The position numbers and the translations under genes are program-made. A stretch of DNA of 64,000 bases from Eledone cirrhosa (taxonomy: Eukaryota), in assembly GCA_964016885.1 (NCBI GenBank), contig OZ024744.1, positions 28,520,001 through 28,584,000 of the forward strand, in the 5' to 3' direction. Below are positions 28,201 through 63,992 of this stretch, piece after piece (within the stretch, counting starts at the first letter, position 1; each line of letters starts with the position of its first letter). Below the pieces are notes generated by a model. That model was given only the letters and a program-made list of their open reading frames with translations. It was not told where the DNA came from and searched no databases.

Positions 28201-28254
28201 CCATGGCATCCGTAGGCCACGAACATTCACGCTTCTAACTCGTAAGTCAGCCAT
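25225..28254 (-). pseudogene. Tx1 ORF2 pseudogene (APE endonuclease, partial RT, zinc finger)
   Basis: Motifs: MADLRVRSVNVRGL, VGDWN, YLDR, SDH, GPGYWKLN, SPDLDGLP, AYVDD, KLLGVWFG, CPRC…HC. It has frameshifts, stops, a SINE insertion and an RT deletion near 26648. Confidence 0.88.
27970..28148 (+). mobile_element. tRNA-derived SINE (MetaSINE-like central domain, octopus-type)
   Basis: B-box-like GAGTTCAAATCCC followed by CTTTGCTTTTCATCCTTACGGGGTCGATAAAAT..GTACCAG. A 12-bp TSD GTTATTACATCT lies at 27958-27969 and 28149-28160. Removing the insert restores NDLRSYGVDVITITE in Tx1 ORF2. Confidence 0.88.
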
Positions 28255-28897: not shown

Positions 28898-29851
28898 CTA
28901 TGTGTGATTGTGGTAGTGTTGGATGGAGTGTGATGGGGTGGCACTGTGTTTTTCAGGGGAATTTTTAGTGTTTTTTCTGTTGTTTGTGGTTGAACAGTTA
29001 TTTGTGTGTTTGCTTGTTTTGTGTGTTGTTGTTGTTGTGGTTTTAGTGTTGGTGTTGGTAAAAGTACTTTTTATGGGGGGGGGGGTCGTAAGAGGGGACA
29101 GGAGGCCTTTAAATGTGGCCTCCTGACCTTCTGCCGAAATCTGTACACAGTTTCTTTTGTCTACTGGCACCCTTTCCGGTATCTTGGAAATTCTGTCGGG
29201 TTTCATTTGGACCAAAATTTCCAAGCTTGTGCTGTTCCAGGTGTTTCTTGTGGATTTTTGAATCGACAGTATTGTGTTTTCATCCTCCTCCAAGAACCCT
29301 GCCACAATCCACCAGATGTTAATGTTGGGTGGTATATTGGTAATGTTTATTCTTTGTGTTCTTTTTCCCATGTATGTAGGGAAAAAGGTGTGTGTAGCAG
29401 AGGTGACCGGGGTCACTGAGTATTTTTTCGCAAGGGCCTCACTTTTGAAGAGCACCGAAATGCTTCCATATAATTTAGCCCTTTGCATGAATTGTATGTC
29501 TGGCATTGCCTCTTTCAAGACGATTTCAATTTCGCCTTGAGTAAGGAAAGCCGGTTTTTTTTGTTTGTTCAAAATCGTGCGAAAAGTCACAGTCCTTCGC
29601 ATTGTGTCGGCTTTGATTTGTGGCAGAAAAGTTATGTTAAATCCCCCTTTTCTCTCGAAAGTAATATATTTTTTTCCTTCATTGATCATTTTCTTCGCAT
29701 TGGAAATATCAATATTTGTAAAAGTTCCTTTGTTTATTGTCGCCAAAGATTTGTTATGGTTGCTGCTGTTGTTGTCATTGTTGTCATTGTTGTCGTTGTT
29801 GTTGTTGTTTTTGTTATTCTCAATTGCTTGATTTGTGGTTGTGGAGTTCAT
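28898..29851 (-). pseudogene. Tx1 ORF1 (nucleic-acid-binding), main segment; frameshifted Thr/Pro-rich tail continues to ~28260
   Basis: 317-aa ORF upstream of ORF2, homologous to 1-850 and more distantly to 58175-58849 (RTVT.RT, P.Y.G.K…VPP motifs). Confidence 0.75.
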
Positions 29852-29896
29852 TTGTGAAGTTGTGTTTTTTTCTTGTTCAATATTTTTTTGTGCCGT

Positions 29897-30715
29897 AAAG
29901 CTATACTTTTACAAAATCATCGGCTTTTTCCAAAAGGAGATCCCTGCCCACAGGGGTGCCCCTATTCAATATGTGCCAATTCTGAGAGACAACATTCATC
30001 TGTAGAACAAACGTAGCCCATGTGTCAAGTTTTGTGAAAATCGGTTCCGAACTCCAGAAGTTATGACGTTTTGTTGCATTGCACGGCTTCCAAGAAAGCG
30101 GTTAAAGGAGGTTATCTGCCGGGAGGCCCTATAATCAATCTGGAAAAATAAAAGTGTCCATGACCATCCGGAGTACATAAGTAACCTATGTCTTAAGTTT
30201 GGTGAAAATGCTGTAGAAATGCATATGGTTTACACACACGCGCGCGCGCGCGTTTGTGTGTGTGTATGTATTTTTGTGTGTGTATGTCCGTCGGCGCATA
30301 CGTATGTACTGGCCTAAATCTTCACTATTTACTTTTACTATTTTAATAACCTCTGTCATTTTCGTTTACAATTTTATTTACATCATTCTTAAACGCCGGG
30401 GCTGGAAATCATTCATTTATTTTAAATAGAATATCAGTCTAACGACTCCAAATATTCCATAAACTTGGTCTTGTCTTTGCATGAAATTATTCTTCTGGGT
30501 CCACATTACGACGTATTATCCTCGCTTGTTTTCTGTTCATTGCCAGGGAACGTCTTCACGAACCAAAATATCGTCTTCCTGTTTTCCTTCGGTTGCAATG
30601 TTTCTCGAAATATTGACTTCTGCGTTCGCAGATTGATTCTTTTAGTTTCAGAAGATCCCGTTAGGGGTGAAAGCAGCTATTCTTTGCTTAAACTTTAATC
30701 TGTTCTTATAACAAA
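29897..30715 (-). mobile_element. Partial inverted copy of the Helitron/Naiad-3'UTR composite
   Basis: 29897-30635 is the diverged reverse complement of ~31943-32825. It lacks the CTAG terminus and retains a complete hammerhead at 30628-30703. Confidence 0.8.
30628..30703 (+). ncRNA. Naiad pLTR hammerhead-like motif (CAGAAGA core), copy
   Basis: GCAGATTGA…AGTTT-CAGAAGA-TCCC GTTAG GGGT-GAAA-GCA…TGC-TT-AAACT-TTAATCTGT. Confidence 0.7.
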
Positions 30716-31401: not shown

Positions 31402-31720
31402 ATTGCCAGAGAACGTCTCTATGAACCACCTAAGAGAACATTAGTCTACGACTTCTTTTATACCATAAAAGTGGTTTTGCCTTTGCGTGTAATTGTTTTT
31501 TCCCCGCTCCAAATAATGACGTATTATATTCGTTTTTTTCCCGTTCTTTGCCAGGGAACGTTTCCACGAACCAAAGTATCGTCTTCCTGTCTTCCTCCGG
31601 TTGCAACGTTTTTTGAAATATTTACTTCTGCGTTCACAGATTGACTTTGTTAGTTTCAGAAGATCTCGTTAATGGCGAAAGCAGCGATTCTTTGCTTAAA
31701 CTTTAATCTGTTATTTCAAT
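31402..31720 (+). mobile_element. Naiad 3' UTR/pLTR fragment with a hammerhead copy (31636-31711, stem II mutated)
   Basis: Matches 52449-52745 and ends in (TA)n. It is flanked by two copies of a ~100-bp Helitron 5' end (31301-31401 and 31732-31840). Confidence 0.85.
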
Positions 31721-35900: not shown

Positions 35901-38828
35901 TTGAGTGGCAGAACAGAGATCTTCCTCACTCTCACGCACTAATCTGGTGCAAGGAGAAGATAAGACCAGATGATGTTGATAAGATCATTTCAGCAGAGTT
36001 GCCTGATAAAGGTGGTGATCCAGAGATCTTTGAAACCAACAAGTCCAAACTCATTAATGATAAATGTGGAGTCATCAATCCAGCCTCTCCCTGTATGAAA
36101 AATAAAAAATGCAGCAAACATTATCCTAGAGCTTTTATTCGGGAAACTCGGACTGACAATAATGGATACCCCATTTATCGTAGGCGTAGACCAGAACATG
36201 GAGGCAATAATGAAAGCCTAGCAGTTCGAGAAGAGGAGCCGACCATAAACAATCAGTGAGTCTTCCCGCACAACAAATTGTTGTGTAAACTTTTAAAAGC
36301 TCATATCAATGTTGAGTATTGCAGCTCCGTCAAGGCAATCCTATATGTCACAAAATATATCAACAAGGGCAGTGACATGGCTACTTTTATTACTGACAAA
36401 GAACTCCATGATGGTGGGCAGCATGAGGTCAAACGGTATTAAACAGGTCGATACATCTCCAGTAATGAAGCTATCTGGCGAATCTTTGGATTTGATATCC
36501 ACCAACGCCACCCAACAGTGATCAACCTCTCAGTCCATCTGGAAAATGGACAAAGAGTGTACTTCACTGAGGTCACTGCTCATTAGTTGTCACAAGCATA
36601 ACATGAGACTACACTAACCGCTTTCTTTAAACTCTGCCAGAATGATGAATTTGCTCGATCCCTCCTATATGCTGAAGTCCCAACATACTACACCTGGACT
36701 AATTGCAAGACCTGGAATCGAAGAAAGCAGGGTCATTTAGTGGAAGATCATGAAATCAAGTCAAGTGATGCTATTGGGCGTGTTCACAATGTCCATCCCA
36801 ACAACAGAGAATGTTTTTATTTATGGCTACTTCTGCATACTGTTCGAGGACCAACGTCATTTGAGTATCTTAGGTGCTTCAGAGGAAGGGAGTGTGCAAC
36901 ATACCAAGAAGCATGTAAATAGCATGGACTCCTGCATGACAATTGACACTGGAAGAAGTGCCTAGAAGAAGCAGCAATCACTCAAGTAGCCAGTCAACTA
37001 AGACAATTATTTGCTATTATGCTCACAGCATGTGGAATTGATGAAGCTCATCTACTCTGGCAGGAGTACAAAAACAATATGTCGGACGACTATCTACACC
37101 TAGCCCGAAGACATCATGGCAATATTTATATGGAATATGCCCCAGGATTTACAATCAAGCTCTCTGTGACCTGTCCCATCTAGTTCAGGCAATGAATAGC
37201 ACATTAGCTAACTGCGGGATGCCAGAGCCAGATGAAGAAATGGATGTAGCACAATACATTTTTCAGGAGACAAACTACGATATTCAAGCATTTCCTAAGT
37301 TTGTGGATGAAAATGAACCTCGATTGATGGATGACCAGAAATACGCCTACCACAACATCATCGAAAGCATTCAAAATGATAGGAGAGGACTTTTCTTCAT
37401 CGATGCTCCTGCTGGCACAGGCAAGACATTCCTCATAAACCTCCTGCTTGCAAAAGTTCGCCAAAAGCAACATATTGCCCTTGCTTTGGCTTCAAGTAGC
37501 ATTGCAGCAATACTTCTGGATTGAGGCAGAACTGCACACTCCATGTTTAAGCTGCCCATAGATCTCACACGGCATGAACAATCTTTTTGCAACATCAATA
37601 AGAACTCACCCAAGGGCAAGCTTCTGCAAACATGCAAGATGATAATTTGGGATGAACCTACTATGAGCCATAAAGGAGCAATTGAATCTTTGGACCGGAC
37701 GATAAGGGATCTGAGAGAAAATAGTTGCATAATGGGAGGAGTGACAATGGTTCTTGCTGGTCATTTCAGACAAACTCTGCCTGTAATTCTTCGAGGGACT
37801 CGAGCTGAATAGGTCAATGCTTGTCTGAAAACATCCTATCTCTGGCCCAACTTTCAGCTGCTGAGCCTTACAACCAACATGATAGAACACTTAAATGGTG
37901 ACGAAGGTGTCAGTGAGTTTGCCATCCCACTACTTAAATTGGGAAATGGACTTCTTGAAAAGGACTCCAATGACCATATTCAGTTGTCATTTGGCCATAT
38001 CATTGACACATAACAAGAACTGATTGCCAGAGTGTTTCCAAACATTCAGACCAGGCAATGTGATCCGAAATGGTTCTGTGAACGAGCAATCTTAGCACCT
38101 AAAAATGTTGCTGTTAAGGAAATCAACAGAAGGCTGCTGGAGATGTTACCGGGAGAGAAAATATGTTACAAAACAGTTGACACAATCACTTCTCAAGACC
38201 ATGTTGTAAGCTATCCAACTGAATTTTTGAACAATCTTGAACAAGCGGAAATTCCTCCACACAACCTGATACTGAAGCTTGGAGCATCGGTTATGCTACT
38301 TCGCAATCTGGATCCTCCAAAACTTTGTTATGGCACAAGACTCATCATCAAAAATATGATGTCCAATGTTCTAGAAGTTGCAATCATGTCAGGAAAATTT
38401 GCTGGTGACAATTGTTTTATTCCCAGAATACCTCTGAAGCCAACTGATTTGCCATTTAAATTTCAAACACTTCAATTTCCGATCAGACTCAGTTTTTCCA
38501 TGACCATTAATAAATCTCAAGGGTAATCATTGAAAGTCGTTGGGTTGAATCTGGCAGATCCTGTCTTTTCACATGGTCAACTCTATGTTGGCACAACAAG
38601 GGTTGAGAACCCTGATTGTCTCTTCATTGTGGCACCACAGGGCAAAACCAAGAATGTTGTTTATCCAGAGGCTTTGGAATATACAATGTCGTAATTCCTC
38701 ATTCAATGACAATACACACAGATCCTAATTCCTTAGTCATGTAGTTTGCAAGGAATTCTGAAGCCGCAAATTTACTGCATGGTGTTACTTTGGAAAAATA
38801 TGCAGGCATTCCCGGGTACCTCTGCTAT
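32909..38828 (+). mobile_element. Decayed autonomous Helitron
   Basis: Starts directly after the previous CTAG with TATATATATAAATG. It contains the Rep-helicase pseudogene and ends CCCGGGTACCTCTGCTAT, the same terminus as 32891-32908 with CTAG changed to CTAT. Confidence 0.85.
34318..38694 (+). pseudogene. Helitron RepHel pseudogene (HUH endonuclease and PIF1-family SF1 helicase)
   Basis: Motifs in order: CQYCGAKKW..ET..CC..G, YNSAFQMTSFG, YDSLQYPL, LPSSFTGGPRYM, PDLFITFT, EWQNRDLPHSH (HUH), YVTKYINKG, APAGTGKT (Walker A), IWDE, QFPIRLSFSMTINKSQG, SHGQLYV..TRV. Many stops and frameshifts. Confidence 0.95.
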
Positions 38829-41794: not shown

Positions 41795-41944
41795 AAATAT
41801 GGTTTTATAAATATAGTTTCCATTTATTTAATATCGTAAATATACTCCAAATACTTGTTGAGTGCTTTTATATCAGTTATAAATATTTACTAGTTGTAAC
41901 CCAACAATTTAAATATAACTTTCCATGTATATATATATATATAT

Positions 41945-42235
41945 ATTTATTAAAATAACAGATTAAAGTTTAAGCAAAGAATCGCTGCTTTCACCCTTAA
42001 CGGGATCTTCAAAGACAGAACCTCCGGTTGCAACGTTTTTTGAAATATCCAGTTCTGCGTTTACAGATTGACTTTGTTAGTTTCAGAAGATCCCGTTAAG
42101 GGTGAAAGCAGCGATTCTTTGCTTAAACTTTAATCTGTTATTTTAATAAATATATGCTCTACGGTTCTTATATATTTGATATATATTTTCCTTATCGAGC
42201 CCTCTTTGGATTTTAGTCTTCAATTTTATTATTAT

Positions 42236-42328
<93 letters not shown>

Positions 42329-43315
42329 TATATATATATATATATTAAAATAACAGAGCAATGAATCGCTGCTTTCACCCTTAACGGGATCTTCTGAAAC
42401 TAACAAAGTCAATCTGTAAACGCAGAAGTGGATATTTCAAAAAACGTTGCAACCGGAGGAAGACAGGAAGACGATACTTTGGTTCGTGGAAACGTTCCCT
42501 GGCAAAGAACGGGAAAAAACGAATATTATACGTCATTAATAGGAGCGGTGAAAAACAATTACACGCAAAGACAGAACCATGTTTATGGTATAAAAGAGAT
42601 CGTAGACTAATGTTCTATTAGGTGGTTCACAGAGATGTTCTCTGGCAATGAACGAAAAAAACGAAGATAATACGTCATATGTGGAGCGTGGAGAACAATT
42701 GCACGCAAAGACAAAACCACGTAAATGGTATAGCAGAAGTCCTAGACTAACATTCTAACTAGGAAACCGAATGAATCTCCGCGTGAGAGTTAAGAACAAA
42801 GTAAATAAATACAATACAGAGGTAATAGAAATTAAATAAATACATACACGCATACAAATACGTACATACACAAGCATACGCGAAAACACTTACCATAGGT
42901 ATACAAAACCACGCACATATAAATATGTGTGTATACAAATAAATAAATAATTAAATAAACGTATATAAATAAATAAATACGTATATAACAAGCACACGCA
43001 CATACCTACATGTAAATACTCAAATGTTCGGAGACGTAAGTCAACCAAAACATGAAGTACACATATACACACATCCTACATACGTACGAACCTGCATACT
43101 CACACAGACGCAAAACTCCCGTATACACATAATCAAACCATATGTACCAGAATATATAAAATTATACGCCATAACATATACAATCAAATATACGTACAAG
43201 AAGGTATACGTACCTTCACAAAACATACAGGTAATATATACTTACCTATGCAAATAAGTAATGGTATAAACAAAACATATACTTAGCTACCATGTCAAGA
43301 CGTCTTGATGTGGTA
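41945..43315. mobile_element. Cluster of Naiad 3' ends in alternating orientation around (TA)n
   Basis: Minus 41945-42010 (partial hammerhead), plus 42021-42238, (TA)n, then minus 42345-43300 (long 3' UTR; hammerhead lacks the 3' strand of stem I). All match 51790-52838. Confidence 0.88.
42063..42138 (+). ncRNA. Naiad pLTR hammerhead-like motif (CAGAAGA core), intact copy
   Basis: ACAGATTGA CTTTGTT AGTTT CAGAAGA TCCC GTTAA GGGT GAAA GCA GCGATTCTT TGC TT AAACT TTAATCTGT. Confidence 0.75.
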
Positions 43316-43749: not shown

Positions 43750-45140
<1,391 letters not shown>

Positions 45141-45239: not shown

Positions 45240-45300
45240 TTTCATTCTGATGATTGAAAGCAAATTTTTTTTGCTTTTAAGAAACCACAGGTAAATGAAA
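45240..45300 (+). ncRNA. Type I hammerhead, canonical CUGAUGA core, long stem II
   Basis: UUUCAUU-CUGAUGA-UUGAAAGCAAA(loop)UUUGCUUUUAA-GAAA-CC(ACA)GG-UA-AAUGAAA. Stem I is a perfect 7 bp and stem II 11 bp; the triplet is GUA. Confidence 0.82.
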
Positions 45301-45574: not shown

Positions 45575-47785
45575 ATAATAATACATTTGAAGACTAAAAT
45601 CCAAAGAGGGCTCGATAAGGATAAATATATATCAAATATATAAGAACCGTACTGCAATTTCGGCTTGTAAACATAAATTGCACAAAACTGTCCTGTATTA
45701 CAGCCCAACATTATACCCTAACGGATAGTACGAACTATACGCCGATTTTTTACGTCTTGATGTGGTAGCTAAGTATATATTATGTTTATACCATTACTTA
45801 TTTCTATAGGTAAGTATATATTACCTGTATGTTTTGTGAAGGTAAGTATATATTACCTCTATGTTTTGTGAAGATACGTATACTTTCTCGTACGTATATT
45901 TGCTTGTATATGTTATAGGCTTATATATTATTTTATATATAGTGGTACATGAGCATATGGTTATGTGTATACGTGAGTTTGGCGTCTGTGTGAGTATGCG
46001 GGTTCGTACGTATGTAGGGTTTGTGTATATGTTTACTTTGTGTTTTGTTTGACGTACGTCTGCGAACTTATGTGTATTTACATGCAGGTATGTGTGTGCG
46101 CGCATTATATGCGTATTTATGTGTGTATATTTATATAAGTTTATATAATTATACGTATACACGCACACACACACACACATATATATATATTTTTTTTTAA
46201 TATATATTTTTATGTGTTTTGCTGTATACGTTCGTATGTGTGCGGGTACAGGCGTTGCGTGGGTTTTGTATGTGCGTGCGTGCTTTTGTGTGTACGTGCG
46301 TGTATTTGTATACCCATGGGGAGTGTTTTCGCGTATGCATGTGTATGCACGTATATGGATGCGAGCATGTATATATTTAATTTCAATTACCTCTGTAATT
46401 TATTTACTTTATTCTTAACTCTGAAGCCGAGAATCATTCGGTTTCCTAATAGAATTATACTCTATTTTTTAATTTTTTTTATTGTAACAAATTTATATAA
46501 ATGGCCGAGATGACATGAAGGTCTAGATAAACTGGAAGTTTCAAGTACATAGAATATTGTAAATAACAAAATATAATTTAGAGATACATCAGATGAAAAA
46601 TGGTATTTAACTAATGTATTGGTACGCGATGGGGCCCACCCACTGCCCCGGTGGACATAATTGAGAAGGCGTTTCCCTGGAGGACGGCAAGTGAGACGCG
46701 CTGGAAAAGCCACTCCAACTCGCGGGGTTCACACCTGCGGCTGGCCAGCTCAGCGCCTATGGTGGTGAGTAAGGAGGTAGCCCTGGGGCCGAGGACACCA
46801 GAAGTCTCCACTGCGGCCGGTATTTGAGGAGTTTGGCCCCCTCAGCCCGACGTGCAGCAGAACCTGGGTCAGTCGCAGACTGCACCAGGTTGCGGCTGCA
46901 GAAAGTGTCGGTGCAAGTGGCATCCCAAAAGAGGAGTTTGCCACCGCGGAACGGGAAGATGGTCATGCGATCTGGCCTTTTGCCGTCCCCTCAATCCAGC
47001 CCCACCGGCTCAAGCTGGGAAGGGAAGCCTGCAGCGTCCAAGCCATGCTTAATGACCTCGTTAAGGGCAGCACGCGTGGAATGCGGCCGGCACTGTGGCG
47101 ACAGGAAAGCAGGTGGAGGCCAAAAGAGTCCACGGTGGAACCGCAGCGACATTGGGGTGGCTGGCAGATCCGGAGGCTGAGCCTCAGGGAAACGCCGATT
47201 TGCAGGCTATGGTTGTCTAGCTGCGTGACAGTGGAGAGGAGGGCAGGGCATGTAGCCAGGCACCACTGTGGGGTTTGGAGCCAAACGAAAACAAGCAAGG
47301 CGGTGCCTGTCGAACTGGCGCGTGAGCCTGTCTGAAGCCAGACTGCACTGGATGGCATCCCAAATGCGTTGGGGGGACTTGACATCAACAGTACGGTTTT
47401 GCCTTTGCGTGTAATTGTTTTCACCGCTCCACATAATGACGTATTATCTTCGTTTTTTTCGTTCATTGGCAGAGAACGTCTCTATGAACCACCTAATAGA
47501 ATATTAGTCTACGACTTCATTTATACCATAAAAGTGGTTTTGTCTTTGCGTGTAATTGTTTTCACTGCACCAAATAATGACGTATTATCTTCGGTTTTTT
47601 TTTCGTTGTTTGCCAGGGAACGTTTCCACGAACCAAAGTATCGCCTTCCTGTCTTCCTTCGGTTGCAACGTTTTTCGAAATATTTACTTCTGCGTTCACA
47701 GATTGACTTTGTTAGTTTCAGAAGATCCCGTTAAGGGTGAAAGCAGCGATTCTTTGCCTAAACTTTAATCTGTTATTTTAATAAA
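45575..47785 (+). mobile_element. 5'-truncated Naiad copy with inverted 3' tip, interrupted by a CRE element
   Basis: 45575-45650 is an inverted extreme 3' end. 45654-45728 encodes the ORF end (AISACKHKLHKT…YPNG*). The 3' UTR runs to ~46455 and resumes at 47391-47785 with a hammerhead copy at 47698-47773 (U16.1 changed to C). Confidence 0.85.
46465..47390 (-). mobile_element. CRE-clade non-LTR retrotransposon 3' fragment
   Basis: CRCG…H..SC zinc knuckle, EPVGLD*GDGKRPD, FWDATCTDTF, ETSGVLGP, WLFQRVSLAVLQGNA. AATAAA and an A-rich tail lie at ~46465-46485. Same family as 4150-4960. Confidence 0.88.
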
Positions 47786-49552: not shown

Positions 49553-49610
49553 GCACTTCTCCGTATAAGAAAAAAGCTGAAAAATATCTTTTGACATGCT
49601 TTTGACACCC

Positions 49611-50042
49611 ATTAGTTTTACGGTAATCCTTAGTTACAGCATTATGTAGTAGTTGATGGTAAGTACTGCGCTCCACTTGATATAGGTTGCCAGTTTTATC
49701 GGAATGGACGTGCATGGCGTTAGAATCCTTAATAGAACGAATTCTATTCTTCAGGTCTTGCTGGAAGGAATTGCTCCTATTCCGAAATTTGATACTCCGA
49801 ATGAGTTCCAAGACATCATTTTCGAAGGGTAGCAATGCTGGGTTCCACGGAGGGTTATTATAGGTTTTAAATCCAAATTTGTCCTGTTTGTTGTCTGTTT
49901 TTCGCGGATTATCGTAATAAAAGGCACGCCAACGCAACCTTTTAATGAACGCGTCTGTTTTCTGTATCAGGAGTTTTAGGTATGTTTTCCTGCTTGGTAC
50001 GGGTATGTTCTTTGTAGAAATATTCAGATGTTGTTTCTGCAT
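49611..50042 (-). CDS. N-terminal ~143 aa of the Penelope-like ORF (inverted)
   Basis: STKNIPVP…LIQKTDAFIKRLRWRAF…FENDV…IKFR…SDKTGNLY…TKDYRKT is the PLE N-terminal region with the DKT (DKG-equivalent) motif. The listed ORF reads on into flanking simple repeats to 49335. Confidence 0.85.
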
Positions 50043-50062
50043 GATGAATATAAGTCAGTAGA

Positions 50063-51766
50063 GTGCTCAACCGAAGGAGCCAAATCAATGAAATCAACGA
50101 TGCTGGGTTTAAAATCACATCTGATCTCAACATCCTGGACCGGACCGAACCTCTGGACCCTATCTCTCCCCACTTTACCCTGAAGGATCACAAATCCAAT
50201 TTTCCGAACAACCCCTCTATTCGGCTTATTAACCCTACGAAGTCCGATTTAGGTAGACTTAGTAAAACGATTCTTGATAGAATTATACCTGAAATTAGAA
50301 GTTTGGCCCCTCTCGCACTGTGGAACAATTCTTTCGCGGTGATTGATTGGTTCAACGGCATATGTAACAAGGAACATTGCCGTTTTATTCAATTCGACAT
50401 CAACAATTACTACTCCTCCATCACTTTACCACTTCTCCTTAGAGCTATCAATTTCGCTAAAACACTCACAGTGGTTAAGGATTTCGAAGTTGCTGTCATC
50501 CTTAATGCCCGAAAGTCGGTGATTAATTTCGACGACTCTATTTGGATTAAAAAATCCAATAGTACCCCATTCGACGTGAGTATGGGCGCCAGTGACTCTG
50601 CGGAGGTTACTGATCTTATTGGCCTTTTCCTTCTTTTCTCTATCAAGGACGAATTCCCCAACGCGGGCGGTGGTTTGTACCGTGACGATGGTCTTTTGAC
50701 CATGACTAAGTGCGGACCTCGTGCTTGCGACAGATTCAGAAAAGAACTCACAGCCTTCTTTAAAGGCTTCAACCTCTCTATACAGGTTGAGGCCAATCTC
50801 TCGGTCGTTAATTACCTCGACGTTACCCTCAATTTACTGAATGGGTTGTATTACCCGTATAGAAAGCCGAATGATACGCTTAATTACATAAGTAAGCATT
50901 CCAACCATCCTGCCAGCATAACCAAGAACCTGGTAAAAAACGTTTCGTTGAGGCTTTCCCGTCTTTCCACCAACGAGCGCATTTTCAACGACCATTCCAC
51001 TTATTACAATGAAGCTCTTGCTCGAAGTGGATTTGTCGATAAGGTAGCATATACAGAGTACGGGAATAGACCTAGAAGAAATAGATCCCGTCGCATTTGT
51101 TGGTTTAACCCACCATATAATATGGAGGTGGCCACACCATTAGCTAAGATCTTTCTTTCCCTTATTACCAAGCATTTCCCCCCTACACATAAATATAGTA
51201 ACATTTTTAATAGAAACACTATTAAAATGTCTTACTCTACGACTCCTAACCTTGCACATAACATCACAGCTTCAAATTTAGCTAAACTACCTAGCCGTAG
51301 GAACACGTGCAACCCTGTAGTTAGTACTAACTGTAATTGTAGGAATCGGGCTGATTGTCCCCTATCCGGGAAATGCCTCTCTAGTAACATTGTCTACAAA
51401 TGTAAGGTTGTAACACCCACGTCCCGTAGGGCCTACATAGGGTTAACCGCCAATAGTTTCAAGCAGCGTCTTTACATGCATACCCATTCTTTTCGTTACC
51501 CTCTAAGAAGGAATATGACGTCACTTTCAGCTTATATCTGGAGTCTAAAAGACAACCACACCCAATATAAGTTACACTGGGAGATCCTAGCTAGGGCTAG
51601 ATCGTATAACGGAAATAAAAGACCATGTGACCTCTGCGCCGCTGAGGCCCTGGAAATACTCTACGCCACAGTCCACATCTTAAACAAAAAATCTGAGGCA
51701 ATTTCGGCTTGTAAACATAAATTGCACAAAACTTTCCTGTATTACAGCCCCTATCCTAACGGATAG
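50063..51766 (+). CDS. Penelope-like reverse transcriptase and GIY-YIG endonuclease (C-terminal ~565 aa, uninterrupted)
   Basis: LKDHK..RLINP, FDINNYYSSI, MGASDS, LYRDDG, YLDVTL, YRKP..SNHP, WFNPPY, CNC…CPL.G.C, IVY…YIG…FKQR..H, CDLC, CKH. Confidence 0.93.
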   Translation: MLNRRSQINEINDAGFKITSDLNILDRTEPLDPISPHFTLKDHKSNFPNNPSIRLINPTKSDLGRLSKTILDRIIPEIRSLAPLALWNNSFAVIDWFNGICNKEHCRFIQFDINNYYSSITLPLLLRAINFAKTLTVVKDFEVAVILNARKSVINFDDSIWIKKSNSTPFDVSMGASDSAEVTDLIGLFLLFSIKDEFPNAGGGLYRDDGLLTMTKCGPRACDRFRKELTAFFKGFNLSIQVEANLSVVNYLDVTLNLLNGLYYPYRKPNDTLNYISKHSNHPASITKNLVKNVSLRLSRLSTNERIFNDHSTYYNEALARSGFVDKVAYTEYGNRPRRNRSRRICWFNPPYNMEVATPLAKIFLSLITKHFPPTHKYSNIFNRNTIKMSYSTTPNLAHNITASNLAKLPSRRNTCNPVVSTNCNCRNRADCPLSGKCLSSNIVYKCKVVTPTSRRAYIGLTANSFKQRLYMHTHSFRYPLRRNMTSLSAYIWSLKDNHTQYKLHWEILARARSYNGNKRPCDLCAAEALEILYATVHILNKKSEAISACKHKLHKTFLYYSPYPNG

Positions 51767-52660
51767 CACGATCTATACGTGGATATTTTACGTCTTGATG
51801 TGGGAGCTAAGTATATGTTTTGTTTATTCCTTTACTTATTTTCATAGGTAAGTATATATTACCCGTATGTTTTGTGAAGATATGTAACCTTCTCGTACGT
51901 ATATTTGACTGTTATGGCGTATAATTTTTACATATTCTGGTATTTAGGGTTTGGTTATGTGTATATGGGAGTTTTGCGTCTGCGTGAGTATGCAGGTTCG
52001 TACGTATGGTGGGTGTGTGTATATGTGTACTTCTTGTTTTAGTTGACTTACGTCTCCGAACCTTCGTGTATTTATTTGTAGGTATGTGTGTGCGCTTGTT
52101 ATATACGTATTTATTTACTTATATACGTTTATATAATTATTTATTTATTTGTACACAAGCATACACACATACACATATTTATATGTGCGTGGTTTTGTAT
52201 ACCTATGGTAAGGTTTTGCGTATGCTTGTGTATGTACGTATCTGTTTGCGTGTATGTATTTATTTGTTTCTATTACTTCTGTATTGTATTTATTTACTTT
52301 GTTCTTAACTCTGTAGCGGAGATTCATTTGGTCTCCTAGTTAGAATTTTAGTCAACAACTTCTGCTATAGCATTTACGTGGTTTTGTCTTTGCGTGCTAT
52401 TGTTCTCCACGCTCCACATATGACTTATTATCTTCGTTTTTTCGTTCATTGCCAGAGAACGTCTCTATGCACCACTTAGAGAACATTAGTCTACGACCTC
52501 TTTTATACCATAAACGCGTAATTGCTTTTCACCGCTCCTATTAATGACGTATTATTCGTTTTTTCCCGTTCTTTGCCAGCGAACGTCACCATGAACCAAA
52601 GTATCGTCTTCCTGTCTTCCTCCGGTTGCAACGTTTTTTGAAATATCCAGTTCTGCGTTT

Positions 52661-52736
52661 ACAGATTGACTTTGTTAGTTTCAGAAGATCCCGTTAAGGG
52701 TGAAAGCAGCGATTCTGTGCTTAAACTTTAATCTGT
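52661..52736 (+). ncRNA. Type I hammerhead-like ribozyme in the Naiad 3' pLTR (atypical core)
   Basis: Stem I AGUUU/AAACU plus distal ACAGAUUGA/UUAAUCUGU with a 7-nt bulge. Core CAGAAGA at 52682-52688; stem II CCC/GGG; GAAA at 52702-52705; stem III AGCA/UGCU. Predicted cut after U52722. Confidence 0.75.
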
Positions 52737-52826
52737 TATTTTAATAAATATTTGCTCTTCGGTTCTTATATATCTGATATATATTTTCCTTATCGAGCCC
52801 TCTTTGGATTTTAGTCTTCAATTTTA

Positions 52827-52899
<73 letters not shown>

Positions 52900-55338: not shown

Positions 55339-58300
55339 GATTTTTTTATTGGCCACAAGGGCTGACATCAATAAAAACATTACAGACGGCACAGGACGGT
55401 ACAGGACGGTACGATGTGGGTTTTGTGCGTGTAAATATTTTTATTATTTATATAAGAAAAGAAAAAAAAGATATAGAAACATATATATATATAAAGAATA
55501 AAAATGAAAATTGAAACAATCAAAAATCCCCCAATAGGGGGGAAACCTCCGAGGGTTACTCGTGGCGAAAACCACACAAAAGACTACGGCCACCCTGACC
55601 ACCAGGGCAAGCGCCCTCTCTCAATTTTTCCATTTCTCAAACTACAGGTGTATATTCAGAGTGGTCCCGTTCACTCGAACCATTCTCGCTACATTCACCA
55701 ACCTTTCAACAAACTTGCTAGAAGACAGCACTTGCCTCTCCACCCTGATTTTTCTCTTCAAGAGAAACTTGAAAAAGTTAATCAGGGATTCGCCTAAGAG
55801 GAAAGTGTCTGTCTTTAACCCTTTTAACCTTGTCCACCACACAATTTCTTACGCTATGGCCACCAGGCAGATGAAAACCGCCTGCCCGTCCTCCTCGAAA
55901 GGAAGACGGTGAGACCATCTGCACAATGAACTCAGTCGATAACTGGATCAGTCCTAGACGCGACAGAAACTGATGGACATAGCTCCACAAGTCACCAATG
56001 CTCGGGCACTGAAAGAGTGCGTGCACGGCTGTTTCGTCGCTCTGCGCGCATCTCGGACAGGGTCGGCTGACGGCACTTCCGTTCCTGTACGGCTTATCTC
56101 GAACCGGCAACGCTCCGCGGTAGCACTGCCAGGCCAGGGATTTTTGGAAGTTATCCATAGGCCCCGGGCTGAAAGTTCTCCGGAAGAGAGCAAACAGCTG
56201 ATCATCTTCGACGCCCAGGATCTCTCCGAGAACGTCGTCGCCCTTCCCCTCCACTAGTCCTCTATAGAACGCCAAGGTGGATGTTCCACCGATACTGGGG
56301 CCCAGCTGGCAGAGGGTTGTGAGTGCCTGGAGACATTCCAGTTTCCAAGCGCTATCACTCGGTCTTTTCCTGGCCCGGGACTGCAGCTCCGTCAAGGAGA
56401 CGAGCTGTGGGAAAACGTGCCTGGCGAACGGCGACCACAGCTGTTCACCGTCAGGGAAGCACCAGAGATGTCGCAGCCTCAGCGTATGTTTGCGCATCAT
56501 CAGCCATGGCAACGCCAACTTAACTTTAGGCTTTGCGCGCCGGGAAAGACGCGTTCAGCTTCCGGGTTTGTCTATAAAGTTTGTCTCTGTCGATCTCCCA
56601 AATAACACATTTGTGGTCTGTGTAGTCGAACATTTTTAATTGTGGACAACTTCTACTAGCCTTATCTAGTTCTCTGCAGAATACTCTATCGAGATACGAT
56701 CTGGATGACCCGATGCGGTTTGTCCATGTCCACATTGGCACATTCGGGTAATCCAGTCGATACCTGTCAGACAATTCAAAACGTCTGAGCAGGTTGGTGA
56801 GGCTCTTGCACCCTCCTCCCCTATCCACTAGCCCTACACGATCCCAACGTGCATCCAATATACCATCCAGTCGCCTACTAACACTAAAGAGTGGGACGTT
56901 CCAAGAAAGGTCTCTAGACGTCTGAAGAAATCTGGCCGTCCTGCCCCCGTTGCGGCGTAGACGGCTACTAGCCTGAAAGCATTGCCTTCGCTGCCGGTCA
57001 CGTCCAGCATCACCGACTTACCTTCTGGGTCTAGGAAGATGGCCCGTATCGCGAGATCCAAGCCTCTCCGAAATGGGCGGCGACCCCTCCCCCCGATCCT
57101 GAACGGCTGGGCGATGCGTATACATCGTAGCCGCCGAAGATCGGTGCGAAGGCTTGTGCTTCGGAGATTCTGGTTTCACTGATGGCCACCACACCTATAT
57201 TTAGTGACCTGAGGTCGTTGACCAGGTGACCCTGCTTCCAAGATGACCCCAGGCCACGTGCATTTATACTGCCTATTCTGAGTACGGCCATGTTGGATGA
57301 GAAACGGGGCAAGTAAGAAAGGGTCACTTACCTTGTTCGTGTGGTGAAGGGACAGTAGACCCATCCCTTTCGCTGGTCATGGGTGTTTCCATGAGAATTT
57401 CAGTGTATATCCTCTTGGTAACCGACCCACAGAAGTCTCCAACTGCGTTGGGGAATTTTTGTTTTAAAGGTTTGTACTGTTCTATTGAGATTTCGATGAT
57501 GCTTATGTTTGTCGTGAGAGTTCTTGGTGTTGGTAAGGTGTAGTAGTTTTTTTCTGTGATGTCTGTGTGCTGCTTTATATATTGTATGAGTTCTTATTTT
57601 GCCATGTTTATGGCTGTGTACTTATTGGGGGGAGGGGGATTTTGTTGCTGTTTTCTTCTTGTTGCTGTTTGGTGTGTGTGTTTTGTTTTGTTTGCGTTGT
57701 TGGTGTTTTGGGTGATGCTGGTGGTGGTGTGGTTGTTGTTGGCGATGGTGCTTGTGGTGGTGATGGTGATGGTGATGGTGGTGATGGTGTTGCTGCAAGT
57801 TTCCTTGCTGCCTTTACCCCTTTTTGTATGCCTTGCTTTTGGAGGTTGAATCTAAGGCGTTTTTGTTTTTTGTTTTTTTTTGTGGCAGACCGTTTGCCAC
57901 TTCACTCCCGCCTCAAACCCCATGTCGGATTCTGTGGCATCTGGGAGGGGTATGTGCTCCACGACTGTTGGTGGTGGTACTGGAGCCCTCTTCGGCAATG
58001 TTGTTGCTGGTGTAGCTATTTCAAATGTAGCTATTGGTGTTGCCGCTACTGATGATGCTGCTTTAGTTATCTGTGGCCTTGGTACTGGTGCTACGGACGT
58101 TGCCCTCCTACTCACCGTGGAAGGGGATTCTTCGTTTGTTGCCTGTTCTGCTCTTGGTAGCAGCGGACCAGGTATTAGAAGGAGAGGGGCCTTCTTCGAT
58201 GTCTTCTGCGGGCAAAAGGCCCTAAGGTGACCTTTCGACCCACAGATATAACATTTTGGCCGCTTCCTTCTACACTTATAGGGAGTTGGAGTCCTTCCTT

Positions 58301-59170
58301 GAAGTCTATGATATCGGGGATAGGTTCGATATATTCCTGGTCAGTTTGTATAAGCATTTGCATGCCTATACCTGACCAGTTCTCTCTCCTTGTTTTTTCT
58401 ACTTGCAGCATGGTCGTCCTGTTCTCGATTCCAGCGAGGACAGACGCGGCCAGCCAAGGTATGGGCACGTCGGGTGGGACCTGGGTCACTTTGACCCTCA
58501 CAATTTTCTGTCCGCAGTAGGAGGGCACCAAGACTAACTCCTCACTCTTTAGGGTTTCCAAAGAGTGAGACTTTGCTTCCTGGGAGGTGGCGAAAAGTAC
58601 GTCTACTGTGGCGTACTTTCTGCCTCGGGTAAACTGGGTTTTGCGTGCCCAGACGCACCCCAAGGCCTTTTGGATTTGAGCCTCCGTGGCTCTCTCCACT
58701 CGATGTGAGATTTTGCTTACGGTGCGGTAAGTCACCGTTCGTAGCTGCTGGTCCTTGAAAACATCGGGTGGAGGTTTCAGGGAAACTCTATTTGCGCTGC
58801 TGGTTACCATGGCCCTTGCGACTGCCATCTCCTCCTCTGTGACTAACACTGTCTCGATATTTCGGGCGACACCTGCAAAAGAAGTGGTCCCTTTTTCAGC
58901 AGCACCACTATTGCTGCCGCTACTGGTCTTACTGGTGGTGCTGAGGTCGTTATTACAGGTACCGGTGTCATTGTTGTTGTTTTCGTTGGTACAGTTGTTG
59001 GTGTTGTATTCATTGATACTGTTGCTGCTGTTACTGTTATTGTGGCTGTTGTTATTATTGTTGTTTTTGTTGATACTGTTCCTACTATTATTGTTGTTGT
59101 GGCTGTTGTTATTGTCATTGTTATTGTCGTACTTGACCTTACCGCTGTTATTTTTGTTGTTGCTGTTGTT
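55339..59170 (-). mobile_element. Tx1-clade LINE copy E with ORF1 and internally deleted ORF2
   Basis: ORF1 core at 58175-58849. ORF2 starts at 57291 (MAVLRIGSINARGL); the endonuclease is fused through a short filler near 56513-56528 to the post-RT region (PWLMMR…CPRC). (AAT)n lies on both sides. Confidence 0.9.
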
Positions 59171-59181
59171 ATAATAATAAT

Positions 59182-59224
<43 letters not shown>

Positions 59225-59467
59225 TTTTCTTTATTAACCACAAGGGTTTACATAAAGTAGACATTAAGGACAGTACAGGACAATACAGGACGGTACAAAT
59301 GGGCATTTCTGCGTGTAAAAAAAACAGAGGATGTAATAAAATAGCAAAGAAAAATTCCCCAATAGGGGGGAGACTTCCGAGGGACATTTGTGAAGAAAGC
59401 CCATTAAAAGACCACAGTGACCCTGACCACCAGGGCAAGTGCCCTCTCCCAGTTTTCCACCTTTAAT

Positions 59468-62400
59468 TTACAGACACATACTCAGAGAAAGCCCATTCAT
59501 TCGGGCCATACTTGCTTCTCTCACCCATCTTTCAACAAAATGCTGGGAAGAGAGCACTTCCCTCTCTACCCTGATTTTCTTTTTCAAATGAAATTTGAAA
59601 AAGTTAATCAGGGCATCACCGAAGAGGTAAGTGCTCGTCTTCAGCCCTTTCAAACGTGTCCACCATACTATCTCTTTAGCCATGGCCCCCAGACAGATAA
59701 AAACTGCCTGCCCTTCCCGGCTAAAGGAAGAGGGCGGGGCAATCCTCACGATGGACTCAGCTGATAGCTGGATCCGTCCTACACGTGACAGCAGGTGTTC
59801 GACATAAACCCACAAGTCAGCAATGCTCGGACACTGGACGAGTGAGTGCAGGACGGTTTCGTCGCCCTGTGCGCATCTCGGACATGTCCGGCTGACGGCA
59901 CCTCCATGCCTGTAGAGTTTATCCCGAACTGGCAAGGCTACTCGGTAGCACTGCCAGGCCAGAGATTTCTGGAAGTTGTCCATAGGCCCTGGCCCGAAAG
60001 TTCTTCCGAAGAGATTGGCTAGTTGATTTTCGTCGACGCCTAGAGTTTCCCCAAGTACGTCGTCGCTCTTCCCCTCCACTAATCCTCTATAGAACGCCGA
60101 GGTGGAGTTTTCACCGATCACATTGCCCGATTGGTCGAGGGCTGTGAGCGCCTGAAGACATTCCAGTCTCCAGGCGCTCCCTCTCGGTCTTCGCTTGACC
60201 CAGGACAGCAGCTCCGTCAAGGAAACGAGCTGGGGAAATACGTGTCTAGCAAACGACGACCACACCTGATCATCGTCGAGGAAGAAGTGGAGATGTCGTA
60301 GCCTGAGCGCGTGCCTGCGCATCATCAACCACGGCATGCCCAGCCCTCCATGTAGCGGGTGTTGACAACAGATGGACCGCCTGACCATCGGAGTGCGTCC
60401 CTTCCACAAAAAGCGAAAGAGCAAACGCTCCAGCGCAGTCAGGCGAGGCTTAGGACAAGGTACGACGGTCAGGCGGTAGCAGATGACAGACGCGATGTAC
60501 GCGTTAGCCACCTACGCTAGACCTTTTAGGGATAGCTTCCTCTCCGCCCATTTCTGGGTGAGAGAAGCCACCCTGCTCGTCACCCGTCCCAGTTTTTGTC
60601 CGTCTGGAGGTCCGGACCGAGCCAGACCCTAGCAATTTAACCGGTCCGTCCGTCCAGCGTCCGACGACGCTGTTGGACGGCATGGACCTGCCTCTCCAGC
60701 TGCCGAGCTGCAGGCCCACTGACTTTTCCTGGTTGATCATTGCTCCTGTCACCGCTTCGTATTCTCTTAGTGTAGTGCCGATCGCCTCGATGTGTTTGGC
60801 GTTCGACACCACTACGGTGACATCGTCGGCATATGCTGACACGGATCTTTCGCATCTTAGTTCGCGCGGGACGCCCCTCAACGTCTCCAGTTTGTGCAGT
60901 AATGGCTCGAGAGTCAATACGTACAAGAGGGACGAGAGGGGCATCCTTGGCGGACAGAGCACATGGTGTTTAACGGTTCCGAAAGGTGACCGTTCACTCT
61001 CACCACAGAGCAGATGTCGCTGTGCATGGCAGCGATCCAGCCTCTGAAGACGGGCCCAAAGCCAGCCGCCCTCAGGACTGCCGCTAGGTAACGATGCTCG
61101 ACCTTATCGAAAGCTTTCGACTGATCTAAATTGATCAAAGACCCACCCGTGCCAGATTCCCTAGCTACCCTCTCTACGATGTATCGCATGAGGTGGAGGT
61201 TGTCGTGGATGGATCTGTCGGGAATGGCGCATGTCTGCGCCTCTCACACCAGACCACCAACGACAAGCGCCAACCTCTTTGCTAGCACCTTGGCCAAAAT
61301 CTTGAACTCTGTGTTTAGCAGAGTTATGGGCCTGAAATTATCTATGTTATCCCCCTTGTTCGGATCCTTTCTCAGCAGTGCCACCGCTCCTCGGCTCACA
61401 GAACTGGGAATTCTCCCGTTCTGTTGCCAGTTGCAGTAGACGTCCGCCAAGAGGCCTCCGAACAAGTCTGGCATCTGTACGTAAAGTTCATAGGGCAGAC
61501 CGTCCAAACCAGGCGATTTATCCCTTGTGCAGCCAGTCATTGCCTCCCTTACTTCAGCGGCTGTTATCGGCTTTTCGCAACACTTCGCCTCAGTGGCCGA
61601 GAGCCGCGGCAGTCCGTCGAGGTAGACACTAAAGTCCATCCCTCGACCCGGCCCACCGCTGCCCCCAAACAGCTGAGTGAAGTGTCGCTGAAAAGCTTCA
61701 CACATTTTCCCGGGATCGAGTAGCATGCGCCCGTCGTGGTCCACCAAAGACCGGATCGTGGCTTTGTTGCCACGACGCGCCTCCGCCACTCGGGCCCATT
61801 GAACGGCTTTCGTCCCCTCGTGTCTGAGAGCACGCACCCTAGCTCTGACAACGCAGCCTTCGTGCTTTGCATTGAAGAATTGGTCAAGGGCCAATTTCGC
61901 CGCAAGCACGTCGGTCGCAATGCCTTTGCTAAGCGCCTCGTCTAATTTTCTAACTAGTTCTACCTCTGCTCTATTTTTCGCTATTGCTAAAGCCTTACTA
62001 AACCTAATGGATTCTATTCTAATCGGTCTTTTCAGAGCAAACCACCACTTGTTGTTGACGATGGCCCCCGTCAACGCCCGCTTAACTAGTTCGCTAATCC
62101 GGTCTCTGTAGGCCTTGCGCGCTGGTAAGGACGCGTTTAGCTTCCAGTAGCCGGGTCCTCGTCTATGAAGCCTATCTAAGTCAAGCACACAGGTCACGAA
62201 TTTGTGGTCCGTGTAGCTGACTATCTTGAATTGTGGACAGCCTATGCTAGACCTATCTATTTCCCTACAAAATACTCTATCTAGATATGATCTGGATGAC
62301 CCTATGCGGTTTGTCCAAGTCCACATTGGCACATTCGGGAAATCCAATCGGTATCTGTCAGACAGTTCAAAACGCCTGAGCAGGTTGGTGAGGCTCTTGC

Positions 62401-62884
62401 ACCCTCCACCCCTATCCGCTAATCCCACACAGTCCCAGCGTGCATCTAAGATCCCGTTTCAGTCGCCCACTAACACTAATGAGCGGGACGTTTCAAGAAA
62501 GGTCTCCAGACGCCGGAAGAAATCAGGCCGCCCTGCTCCTGTCGGGGCATAGACGGCCACTAGCCTGAAATCTTGCCCGTCTCCGCTGGTCACGTCCAGC
62601 ACCACCAACTTACCCTCTGGGTCCAGGAAGATGGGCCGTATGGCGAGATCCAAACCTCTCCGAAAAAGCACAGCAACCCCCCCCCCCGATCCAGGACGGC
62701 TGGGAGATGCGTACACATCGTAGCCGCCGAAGATCGGTGCGAAGGCCCGTGCTTCGGAGATTCTGGTCTCGCTGATCGCCACTACATCTATGTTTAGTGA
62801 CCTGAGGTCGTTGAGCAGTTGACCCTGCTTCCATGACGACCCCAAGCCACGCGCATTTATGCTGCCTATTCTGAGTGAAGTCAT
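59468..62884 (-). pseudogene. Tx1 ORF2 pseudogene: APE endonuclease, RT, zinc finger (about 5 frameshifts)
   Basis: SINARGL, ISET, VGD, YLDR, TDH, SPGLDGLP, FRPITLLN, DQSKAFD, VRQGCP, AYADD, CPRC…H…C across ORFs 62459-62884, 61244-62428, 60914-61189, 60504-60962 and 59468-60511. Confidence 0.93.
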
Positions 62885-62919
62885 GTTTAAAATAGAGTGG
62901 AAAAGATGAGAAAGACCAC

Positions 62920-63992
62920 TTACCGTACTTTTCGTAGAGGAGGGATGGTTTTTCCATCCCTTTTCACTTGATCGTCTGGTGAAGGGACCGTTGAATCGTC
63001 CCTTCGGCTGGTCGTCGGCTCTTCTATGAATATGTCCGAATATACTCTTCGGTTGAGTGTCCCTCCTAGGTCTCTGAAATCACCAACTGCGTTGGGGAAT
63101 TTCGTTTTAATGTTTGTGTATTGTTTCTGTGCTATTTTTAGCAGTCTTATGTTAGTTGGCGTTTTGATTGGTGCTGGTATTATGTAGTCGTGTTGTGAAA
63201 TGTCTGTGTGTTCAATTATGTAAGTCATTAGTTTCTTGTTGTGTGTATTTATTGCCGTGCATTTGTTTTTCTGGGGGTGGGGTGTGGTTCTGCTATTTTC
63301 TTGTTGTTGCTGGGTGTGTGTGTTTTGTTGTTGTGTTTGCGATGTTGGTGCTTGTGGTGGTGGTATTGAAGGTGTTGTTGGCGGTGGGGTTGTCGCTGGT
63401 GGTGCTAGTGTGGGTGGTGATGGTGTTGGTGGTGTTACTGCTGTGAGTCTCTTTGCAGTAGCCTTTACCCTTTTTTCATTTCTTTCCTCCCTTTTCAAAT
63501 GCGACGATGCGCTGCTTCTGTGTTTGTGCCTTCTTACGACCTTTTGCCATCCCTCTCCCACCTCACACTCCATGTCTGATTCTGTGAGGTCGGGGAGGGT
63601 TACCAGCTCCACTCTTTCACTTGTTGTTGTTGGTGATGTTTGCACTGGAGTCTCTGTTGCAGTTGCATTTGGTATTGCTGTTGTTGTTGTTAATACTTCC
63701 ACTGCTGCTGCTGTTTTTGATTTCCGTGGCGTGGGTATGGGTGCCACGGACCTATCGTTCCTGGTTGCCGCTTGTCGTGTTGCTGGTAGCCGTTGGGCCG
63801 GTTTCGGAAGGAGGGGGTTTTCTCCTTTCTCAGGGTCTTCTCGTTGCAGAAGGCCCTGAGGTGAGTCTTCGATCCACAGCGAAAGTATTTCGGGCGTTTG
63901 TCCTCAACACTTATGGGCAGTTGAGTGCCGTTATCGAAGTCTATCACATCCGGGATAGCTTCGATGCACTCCTGGTTGGTTTGGATTAACAT
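62920..63992 (-). pseudogene. Tx1 ORF1 C-terminal part (degenerate zinc knuckle and Thr/Pro-rich tail), frameshifted
   Basis: …PKYFRCGSKTHLRAFC is a CCHC knuckle with the first Cys lost. It is homologous to copy E ORF1 (IPD.IDF..G.QLPISVE). Confidence 0.75.

Follow-up and report, generated by a model that had tools for sequence, protein, structure and literature searches.

A hammerhead variant with A at position 4 in the pseudo-LTR of a Hydra-clade Penelope-like element of Eledone cirrhosa

The host is a young Hydra-clade element

The window analyzed here is a 64,000-nt stretch of the Eledone cirrhosa genome (GCA_964016885.1, contig OZ024744.1, positions 28,520,001 to 28,584,000, forward strand), and coordinates are counted from its first letter. 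The hammerhead-like motif at 52661 belongs to a Penelope-like element (PLE) with the following parts.

49605..50085, minus strand: inverted 5' part of the element, with leader, ATG (50042), RWR (49934-26) and DKT (49700-692)
50084..51766, plus strand: Hydra-clade ORF, reverse transcriptase (RT) and C-terminal GIY-YIG part
Within this ORF, plus strand: YRDDGL (50678-95), CxCX5C (51332-58), AYIG (51431-42), CxxC (51626-37) and CxH (51710-18)
51767..52676, plus strand: 3' UTR, or upstream part of the pseudo-LTR (pLTR)

About 915 nt separate the stop codon from the hammerhead core. Motif order and a 713-residue open frame in one copy (L128) indicated a single ORF with RT followed by a C-terminal GIY-YIG domain, and contiguous frames of 713 residues were found in many other copies of the family. 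The protein carries RWR, DKT, CNCRNRADC, CDLC and CKH, and no CCHH was seen by eye. The copies have (TA)n targets and form pLTR tandems, inverted partners and a tail. All these features are those of the Hydra clade, and by them the host is a Hydra-clade PLE of a young family, here called the A4 family. The initial annotation had placed it among the Naiads. This label was dropped: the endonuclease is C-terminal, not N-terminal (YRDD at 50678 precedes AYIG at 51431 in one frame), the motif is DKT, not DKA, and RWR and CxCX5C are also Hydra-clade features. Naiads are defined by an N-terminal endonuclease and DKA (PMC8557442). The same annotation had assigned the hammerhead to a PLE pLTR, and there the homologue was indeed found.

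The exact 27-mer of the core occurred in 21,667 copies in the 3.0-Gb genome, against 0 for the control, so the motif is not a chance occurrence. Among 7,998 candidates scored, the ORF protein had 535 relatives at E ≤ 1e-20. A protein search with the relative P0001 gave 71 matches at 53-57% identity, and the 20 loci examined were of the A4 family as far as they were read. A Pfam search of the ORF gave no match, and no relatives of the element were found in viral contigs. A non-LTR retrozyme was ruled out: such elements consist of short, non-coding units in head-to-tail tandem, each with a hammerhead, and the A4-family copies, truncated and dispersed or paired tail to tail, derive from a coding element. 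Runs X4 and X5 yielded a single contig each of the A4 family.

The motif is a type I hammerhead variant

The motif was laid out as follows, all on the plus strand.

52661-69/52728-36: distal helix, 9 bp
52670-76: stem I bulge, 7 nt
52677-81/52723-27: stem I, 5 bp, A/U-rich
52682 and 52683: C3 and A4, read from the sequence; G5 and G8 also lie in the core
52690-92/52698-700: stem II, 3 bp, flanked by U10.1 (52689) and U11.1 (52701)
52705-08/52718-21: stem III, 4-bp hairpin; G12 is 52702
52722: U17, with the cut predicted after U52722
52682..52722: core with stems II and III (C3, A4, G5, G8, U10.1·U11.1, G12, A15.1-U16.1, U17)
52677..52727: short form with the 5-bp stem I only, as expected at the head of a transcript starting at 52677
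52661..52736: extended form with bulge and distal helix; the inferred start lies downstream of its 5' strand

The sequence and a pairing check put the stems, the bulge and the core exactly where the initial annotation had drawn them. Three helices surround the core and helix I is open, as in type I. C3-G8, G5, A6, A9, G12, A13, A14, A15.1-U16.1 and H17 also agree with the type I core. Position 4, U in the CUGA turn, is A instead, so we file the motif as a hammerhead variant and not as a canonical member. Loop III has 9 nt and is non-palindromic in the A4 family. In fold predictions of the extended form, the distal helix had pair probabilities of 0.72-1.0. In the five plus-strand copies of the window, the drawn fold lay 3.6-11 kcal/mol above the minimum free energy (MFE), and MFE z-scores were only -0.7 to -2.4.

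Three of the seven copies in the window keep core and stems

Besides 52661, six further copies had been proposed in the window. All were present, and only three of the seven (30628, 42063 and 52661) keep the core and all stems.

30628..30703, plus strand: copy of an older subfamily, core and stems kept (self-match, pairing check, covariance-model match)
31636..31711, plus strand: copy with broken stem II and C11.1, absent from the 28 covariance-model matches
42063..42138, plus strand: intact copy (self-match, pairing check, covariance-model match)
41943..42010, minus strand: inverted partner of the 42063 copy, beginning at G5 and ending at a 52751-type terminus
42338..42417, minus strand: copy lacking 11 nt, including the cut site and the 3' strand of stem I
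47698..47773, plus strand: copy with C at 16.1, which breaks the A15.1-U16.1 pair (pairing check)

These copies are 85-99% identical. Agreement among them is expected from descent and by itself is no sign of function.

Position 4 and the 15.2-16.2 pair set the core apart

The motif had been described as atypical in three respects, namely A4, a U·U mismatch at 10.1/11.1 and a CUU triplet at the cut site. We compared it with hammerheads of relatives in metagenomes. The scan of 78 loci yielded 40 distinct motifs (L273 duplicates L138); L056, which lies inside an ORF, was dropped, leaving 39, and this dropped motif was the sole A4 case among the 40. U·U at 10.1/11.1 was present in 20 of the 39, and U17 in seven. 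Both also occur together in published Hydra rows, e.g., Hydra-1_aJap and Hydra-1_cRog (Craig et al. 2021, PMC8557442, File S2), and U·U at this place is known from natural hammerhead variants (PMC3088659). These two features could thus no longer be counted as atypical, and the core is less odd than first claimed. Position 4 was U in 36 of the 39 motifs, C in two and G in one. C15.2-G16.2 was found in 38, against G15.2-C16.2 in the A4 family. On this comparison, only A4 and the G15.2-C16.2 pair stand out in the A4-family core.

That A4 is the family consensus and not decay was borne out by the 21,667 exact copies and by 60 of 60 copies not selected on the core. Copies with another base at position 4 and an intact 5' flank numbered 344 genome-wide; of 30 that were read, 29 were scattered on different backgrounds, as expected of point mutants, and one was unrelated. 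A U4 subfamily was rejected, as its 691 apparent matches were fold-back junctions in 15 of 15 cases read. A search for sister families with another stem II length (13-nt spacer) gave 26 matches, mostly A4-family indels. A motif derived from contig loose ends was searched for sister families as well, with no match.

The 691 fold-back junctions centre on a small palindrome at G5 (window 52680-52686; L031-L045). They recreate a canonical-looking CUGAAGA and would mislead descriptor searches.

Three Hydra-associated hammerheads carry G4 or C4 (L119:2308, L052:2236 and L100:1726), implying that position 4 changed more than once in the clade. The hammerhead in the Hydra pLTR is already known. A family-fixed A4 was not found in the earlier literature as far as its searchable text goes; figures, among them Figure 5 of PMC3088659, lay outside that search, and the main text of PMC3088659, taken without its figures, holds no U4A.

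A clade model and a sister family link the motif to hammerheads

As had been predicted, CUGANGA descriptors miss the A4 motif, and so does Rfam. No hammerhead family was among the 51 Rfam matches at E ≤ 1 in the whole window, nor among the seven at E ≤ 10 in 52600-52800. Canonical hammerheads elsewhere in the window were missed by Rfam too. A covariance model trained on 34 metagenome Hydra hammerheads only, with the A4 family excluded, was run against the window. It matched 52675-52729 at 21.2 bits (E 0.004; these E-values are rough) and five of the seven window copies at E < 0.1. The stems covary across the 34 hammerheads (0 of 500 shuffles), in an alignment that was itself chosen for pairing. 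Within the A4 family, no compensatory stem change was seen, and none for the distal helix in the copies examined.

A second Hydra family in the same genome, family B, has 9,987 core copies and an RT 51% identical to that of the A4 family. Its layout is the same, its core is the canonical CUGAUGA with A17, and a distal helix is absent. Its stem sequences differ from those of the A4 family and still pair, and it has two 3' termini (L304-L363). Family B was the sister of the A4 family in the tree, with weak support (0.65). The two families formed a clade with P0001, P0039 and P0019 at 1.0 in this tree of relatives, which contained no outgroup or published Hydra reference proteins. The match to the clade model and the canonical layout of family B indicate, on homology, that the motif is a type I hammerhead by descent. 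A4 is probably a derived state.

Conservation in the core and stems

Old and young groups were compared in 140 copies, with three marker columns removed; many of the copies had been chosen on part of the motif, and this limits the comparison. Shared differences fell on 0 of 55 core or paired positions and on nine of 103 others (p 0.028). Loops II and III and the 3' flank were unchanged too (0/23). Four copies of the oldest subfamily have changes in common in the bulge, in both loops (II and III) and in the flanks, and nowhere else. Between subfamilies the distal helix was unchanged and the bulge changed. Between the old and young groups, the whole stretch from 52661 to 52745 was conserved except for the bulge, the most variable part of the motif. 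In DNA contigs, no variant of at least 1% was listed at 52682-89 or 52701-04, and several such variants lay in the bulge, loop III and C/G positions, with some in stems. This pattern fits selection on the fold. As the comparison of old and young copies found no change in the loops or the 3' flank either, constraint on a promoter or on protein binding could explain it as well.

Many copies end at A52677

The 5' ends of copies clustered at stem I. Among 90 copies with an exact core, the 5' end fell at 52673-82 in 22 and within the preceding 72 nt in 18, and the other 50 ran further (p 1e-10); as this count required the exact core, ends 3' of it were excluded by design. Genome-wide, the base before A52677 was not T in 2,734 copies and was T in 17,958. 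In 28 of 30 non-T copies that were read, a true junction lay exactly at A52677, so that about 12% of copies end there. The added base was G in 56 of the first 100 among the matches listed (26% expected), and of 56 copies with G that were read, 55 were junctions. The extra G was often present on both partners of tail-to-tail pairs, and also beside (TA)n or unrelated DNA.

52675..52681, plus strand: initiator-like sequence with the inferred capped start at A52677 (from copy ends)

We take the sequence around A52677 to fit the initiator consensus. Of 38 other Hydra hammerheads, 12 have YAGT in the 15 nt immediately 5' of C3, where 3.8 were expected. In family B, 20 of 30 copies ended within about 12 nt 5' of C3, and eight of the 30 exactly at the first base of stem I, four of these eight with G. 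From the inferred start to the element's ATG the distance is 203 nt. In insertions made by L1, the additional G seen at 5' junctions goes back to mRNA capping (PMC11702581), and Penelope has an internal TATA-less promoter (PMC2377424). From the sharp ends, the extra G and the family B pattern, we infer that the capped RNA of the element very probably begins at A52677, the first base of stem I. A literature search for a start site on a PLE hammerhead found nothing relevant in the text that it covered, figures being outside it, and a capped start on stem I was not found in earlier literature.

A start at 52677 would leave the bulge and the distal helix only in the 3' pLTR copy or in read-through RNA. 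The earlier description of a non-minimal hammerhead would then apply to the 3' copy. It would fail for the head copy, whose RNA likely starts downstream of the bulge and of the distal 5' strand, and family B has no such distal helix.

A pyrimidine run is followed by AG twice (52677-78 and 52683-84) in window 52670-52684, where A4 makes a CAG that resembles a splice acceptor.

Two 3' termini lie downstream of the motif

Two 3' termini were found, both on the plus strand.

52751: first 3' terminus and inferred RT start, followed by (TA)n, 29 nt downstream of the predicted cut
52752..52839: PLE "tail", closing at the second 3' terminus, 52839; what follows is (TA)n, or the ORF leader where copies are in tandem

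Among the 381 pieces aligned, the 3' end lay at 52751 in 93 and at 52839 or 52845 in 120; the 52845 ends run into (TA)n. Loose ends in DNA contigs also supported the 52751 terminus. In PAc, the anole PLE, the tail was traced to two RT start sites (Frangieh et al., PMC11167929).

The upstream pLTRs of ORF-selected copies were examined at 20 loci, seven of which had no leader-pLTR junction. Of the 13 junctions left, nine extended past 52677 and none started there. One round of copying from the 3' end of a linear capped RNA cannot yield such pLTRs. The longer copies need a circle, as in the model of Cervera & de la Peña (2014, PMC4209133), a read-through RNA of greater length, or a cDNA that jumps from the cap onto the 3' repeat. 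L202 and L437, both long copies, carry G at the 52676/77 boundary; in the same scan, 94 long copies had T and nine had C. The boundary G hints at a jump, in too few copies to say more.

These ends suggest a possible route of replication. A capped RNA would start at A52677, and its head copy, with only a weak 5-bp stem I, would likely stay mostly uncut. In the tail copy the distal helix would form as well, and this copy would likely cut slowly after U52722, probably helped by the element's protein. Reverse transcription would likely begin at 52751 and 52839, downstream of the motif. cDNAs begun at these sites in the head repeat would run off the cap and give the many short copies ending in G|AGTTT. 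Copies passing 52677 would arise from a cut-and-ligated circle or by a cDNA jump, made at the cap, onto the 3' repeat, and the likely job of the ribozyme would be RNA trimming for this step.

Does the motif cut?

The motif may well cleave measurably after U52722, and we lean slightly towards that expectation. The predicted share of the full hammerhead fold was 0.0015 for the short form, 0.015 for the extended form and 0.0001 for family B. Since the canonical family B scored below the A4 family, this folding test does not separate the two. Copies with a base other than U at position 17 numbered 829, and 30 that were read comprised 11 junctions, several via stem I microhomology, and 19 point variants. 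By this estimate about 300 5' ends fall at the cut site, against about 2,550 at 52677, and A4-family copies showed no pile-up of genomic 5' ends at the predicted cut. Family B showed none either (167 copies; 16 of 30 read were junctions), so the missing pile-up does not single out A4.

The 19 point variants at position 17 (L184-L213) were G in 10, A in six and C in three, on several subfamily backgrounds. G17 would pair with C3; quasi-palindrome correction or an RT error at 52722 is possible.

Published work bears on the expected rate. In a deep scan of a type III hammerhead, single mutants of the CUGA turn had low activity (PMC9901934). A natural U4C viroid variant is slower and viable in vivo, and U10.1-U11.1, which the A4 family shares, is tolerated in natural core variants (Perreault et al. 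2011, PMC3088659). Cleavage by metazoan PLE hammerheads on their own is poor (PMC4209133). The PAc hammerhead depends on protein for cleavage; insertion in vitro proceeds without this hammerhead, and RNA ends at its cut site were not found (PMC11167929). A look for CUU in PMC1636495 gave no passage.

Taken as a whole, the best explanation is that slow, probably protein-assisted cutting of the extended 3' copy serves the jump or circle step, and on this complete reading we are evenly divided. A catalytically dead or near-dead relic, kept as an initiator, an internal promoter and an RT-binding RNA structure, is a real possibility that we nonetheless doubt; A4 would be tolerated or even favoured there, since uncut RNA is the template. 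Such a relic would agree with RT starts that both lie downstream of the cut, with the conservation of 52661 to 52745 outside the bulge, and with the lack of a cut-site pile-up, which, however, is shared by the canonical core of family B. The low activity of CUGA mutants (PMC9901934) and the hammerhead mutants without effect on insertion in vitro (PMC11167929) point the same way, as do Naiads, which proliferate without canonical hammerheads. A dead relic is harder to reconcile with the oldest subfamily, in which C3-G8, G5, A6, A9, G12, A13, A14, A15.1-U16.1 and the three stems persist while the loops change, or with other Hydra families that vary position 4 in otherwise intact motifs. A further reading, close to that of the initial annotation, is an efficient monomer stabilized by tertiary contacts. 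Docking of the bulge with loop II would compensate for A4 and U17 in it, and cleavage of both copies would release unit-length circles. Its 4-bp stem III and stable distal helix would permit a monomeric fold, tertiary contacts are thought to offset natural core variants (PMC3088659), and the upstream pLTRs passing the start fit a circle. We consider it unlikely. Neither the bulge nor the distal helix would be present in the head copy, and thousands of cDNAs extend across an uncut head copy as far as the cap. In addition, no other part of the motif varies as much as the bulge, and family B has no distal helix.

The pile-up at 52677 could also reflect an RT pause, a fold-back or a nuclease cut with untemplated addition rather than a cap, or A4 could be kept as part of a C3-A4-G5 splice acceptor; both appear very unlikely. 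Fold-back junctions also cluster at the small palindrome at G5 (691 copies; 15 of 15 read), and microhomology with the inverted partner could account for some of the Gs at the boundary. Against this, the end is sharp at one base with one G added, even where the neighbour is (TA)n or unrelated DNA, and both tail-to-tail partners show it. It lies at an initiator-like site and recurs at the equivalent base in family B, and YAGT near C3 exceeds expectation in other Hydra hammerheads (12/38 against 3.8). As for splicing, the intron of D. virilis Penelope ends at helix I (PMC4209133), but no recurrent spliced junction was noticed among the A4-family copies read.

A bolder form of the favoured route, which we regard as rather improbable, is that Hydra-clade PLEs in general begin their capped RNA at the first base of stem I. 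The A4 hammerhead would then be a switch, off at the head and on at the tail, and strong-stop-like cDNAs would jump to a 46-nt terminal repeat (52677-52722). If true, PLEs would possess a strand transfer resembling that of LTR elements, which would account for the rebuilding of the pseudo-LTR in each cycle.

Comparison with known systems

The nearest counterparts are the type I hammerheads of the Hydra clade in PMC8557442 (Hydra-1_aJap, Hydra-1_cRog and Penelope-x_HM). They share with the A4 family the pLTR position and sense, a short stem II, U·U at 10.1/11.1, U17 in several rows and (TA)n targets, and Hydra-1_cRog is drawn with a bulged stem I. The Hydra rows of that work all have U4, which their descriptor required, together with C-G at 15.2-16.2 and a loop III of 0-3 nt, whereas the A4 family has A4, G15.2-C16.2 and a 9-nt loop III. 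The 9-bp distal helix and the distance of about 915 nt from stop to core also set the A4 family apart from them.

Poseidon_Ac (PAc) of Anolis likewise has two RT starts downstream of its hammerhead that define the tail, and its uncut RNA is the template, with no RNA ends described at the cut site (PMC11167929). Its protein-dependent cleavage has been shown, and that of the A4 family is predicted. The PAc hammerhead overlaps the start codon, unlike the A4-family ATG at 203 nt past the inferred start, and in the passages of PMC11167929 covered here no capped RNA beginning at stem I is described. Minimal and variant PLE hammerheads, including that of D. virilis Penelope, also lie in the pLTR, and U3-A8 core variants are known among them (PMC4209133). 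They have low activity in vitro, a circle model was proposed for their partial tandems, and RNA processing can alter their helix I. Compared with these minimal motifs, stem III of the A4 family is a real 4-bp hairpin with a non-palindromic loop, and its two forms would arise through the transcription start, not through splicing as in PMC4209133. Naiad PLEs share with the A4 family the (TA)n insertion bias, partial tandems, inverted partners, the tail and a high copy number. They differ in having an N-terminal endonuclease, DKA, IFD and CCHH without canonical hammerheads, where the A4 family has a C-terminal endonuclease, DKT, RWR and CxCX5C.

The wider question is what hammerheads do in PLEs and how pseudo-LTRs are regenerated. 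Tens of thousands of insertions provide fixed coordinates for a likely start (52677), a predicted cut (52722) and likely RT starts (52751 and 52839), and the canonical-core family B in the same genome serves as a control. With these sites and this control, circle and strand transfer become directly testable against each other. If the A4 core cleaves, CUGANGA searches miss the motif in > 20,000 copies, and some "hammerhead-less" PLEs may need re-examination. If it does not, a very successful PLE has dropped catalysis and kept the fold.

Other repeats in the window and the genome

Fragments of more Hydra-like families were found in the same genome (L206, L176 and L318), with 31-44% identity to the A4-family protein. 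One locus (L017) is retrozyme-like: its 316-bp tandem units at 394, 710 and 1026 on the plus strand each contain a hammerhead of the U3-A8 type.

Two other repeat families have canonical type I hammerheads (CUGANGA) in the window, at 45240-45300 (plus) and 44008-44066 (minus) and with a core at 41738 (plus). A hammerhead-like motif with a U3-A8 core at 8238-8281 (minus) overlaps an ORF fragment at 8202-8765 (plus), whose Cys-rich linker is reminiscent of another PLE clade. A long diverged tandem array occupies 8986-24989, with self-match offsets that are multiples of about 28 bp. Broken Pif1-type helicase frames at 34540-38526 (plus), with a PF21530 match, probably represent a Helitron remnant. 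Several copies of one non-LTR element with an endonuclease/exonuclease/phosphatase domain (PF03372), which we take to be L1/Tx1-like, lie at 25371-29908 and 55778-63903 (minus).
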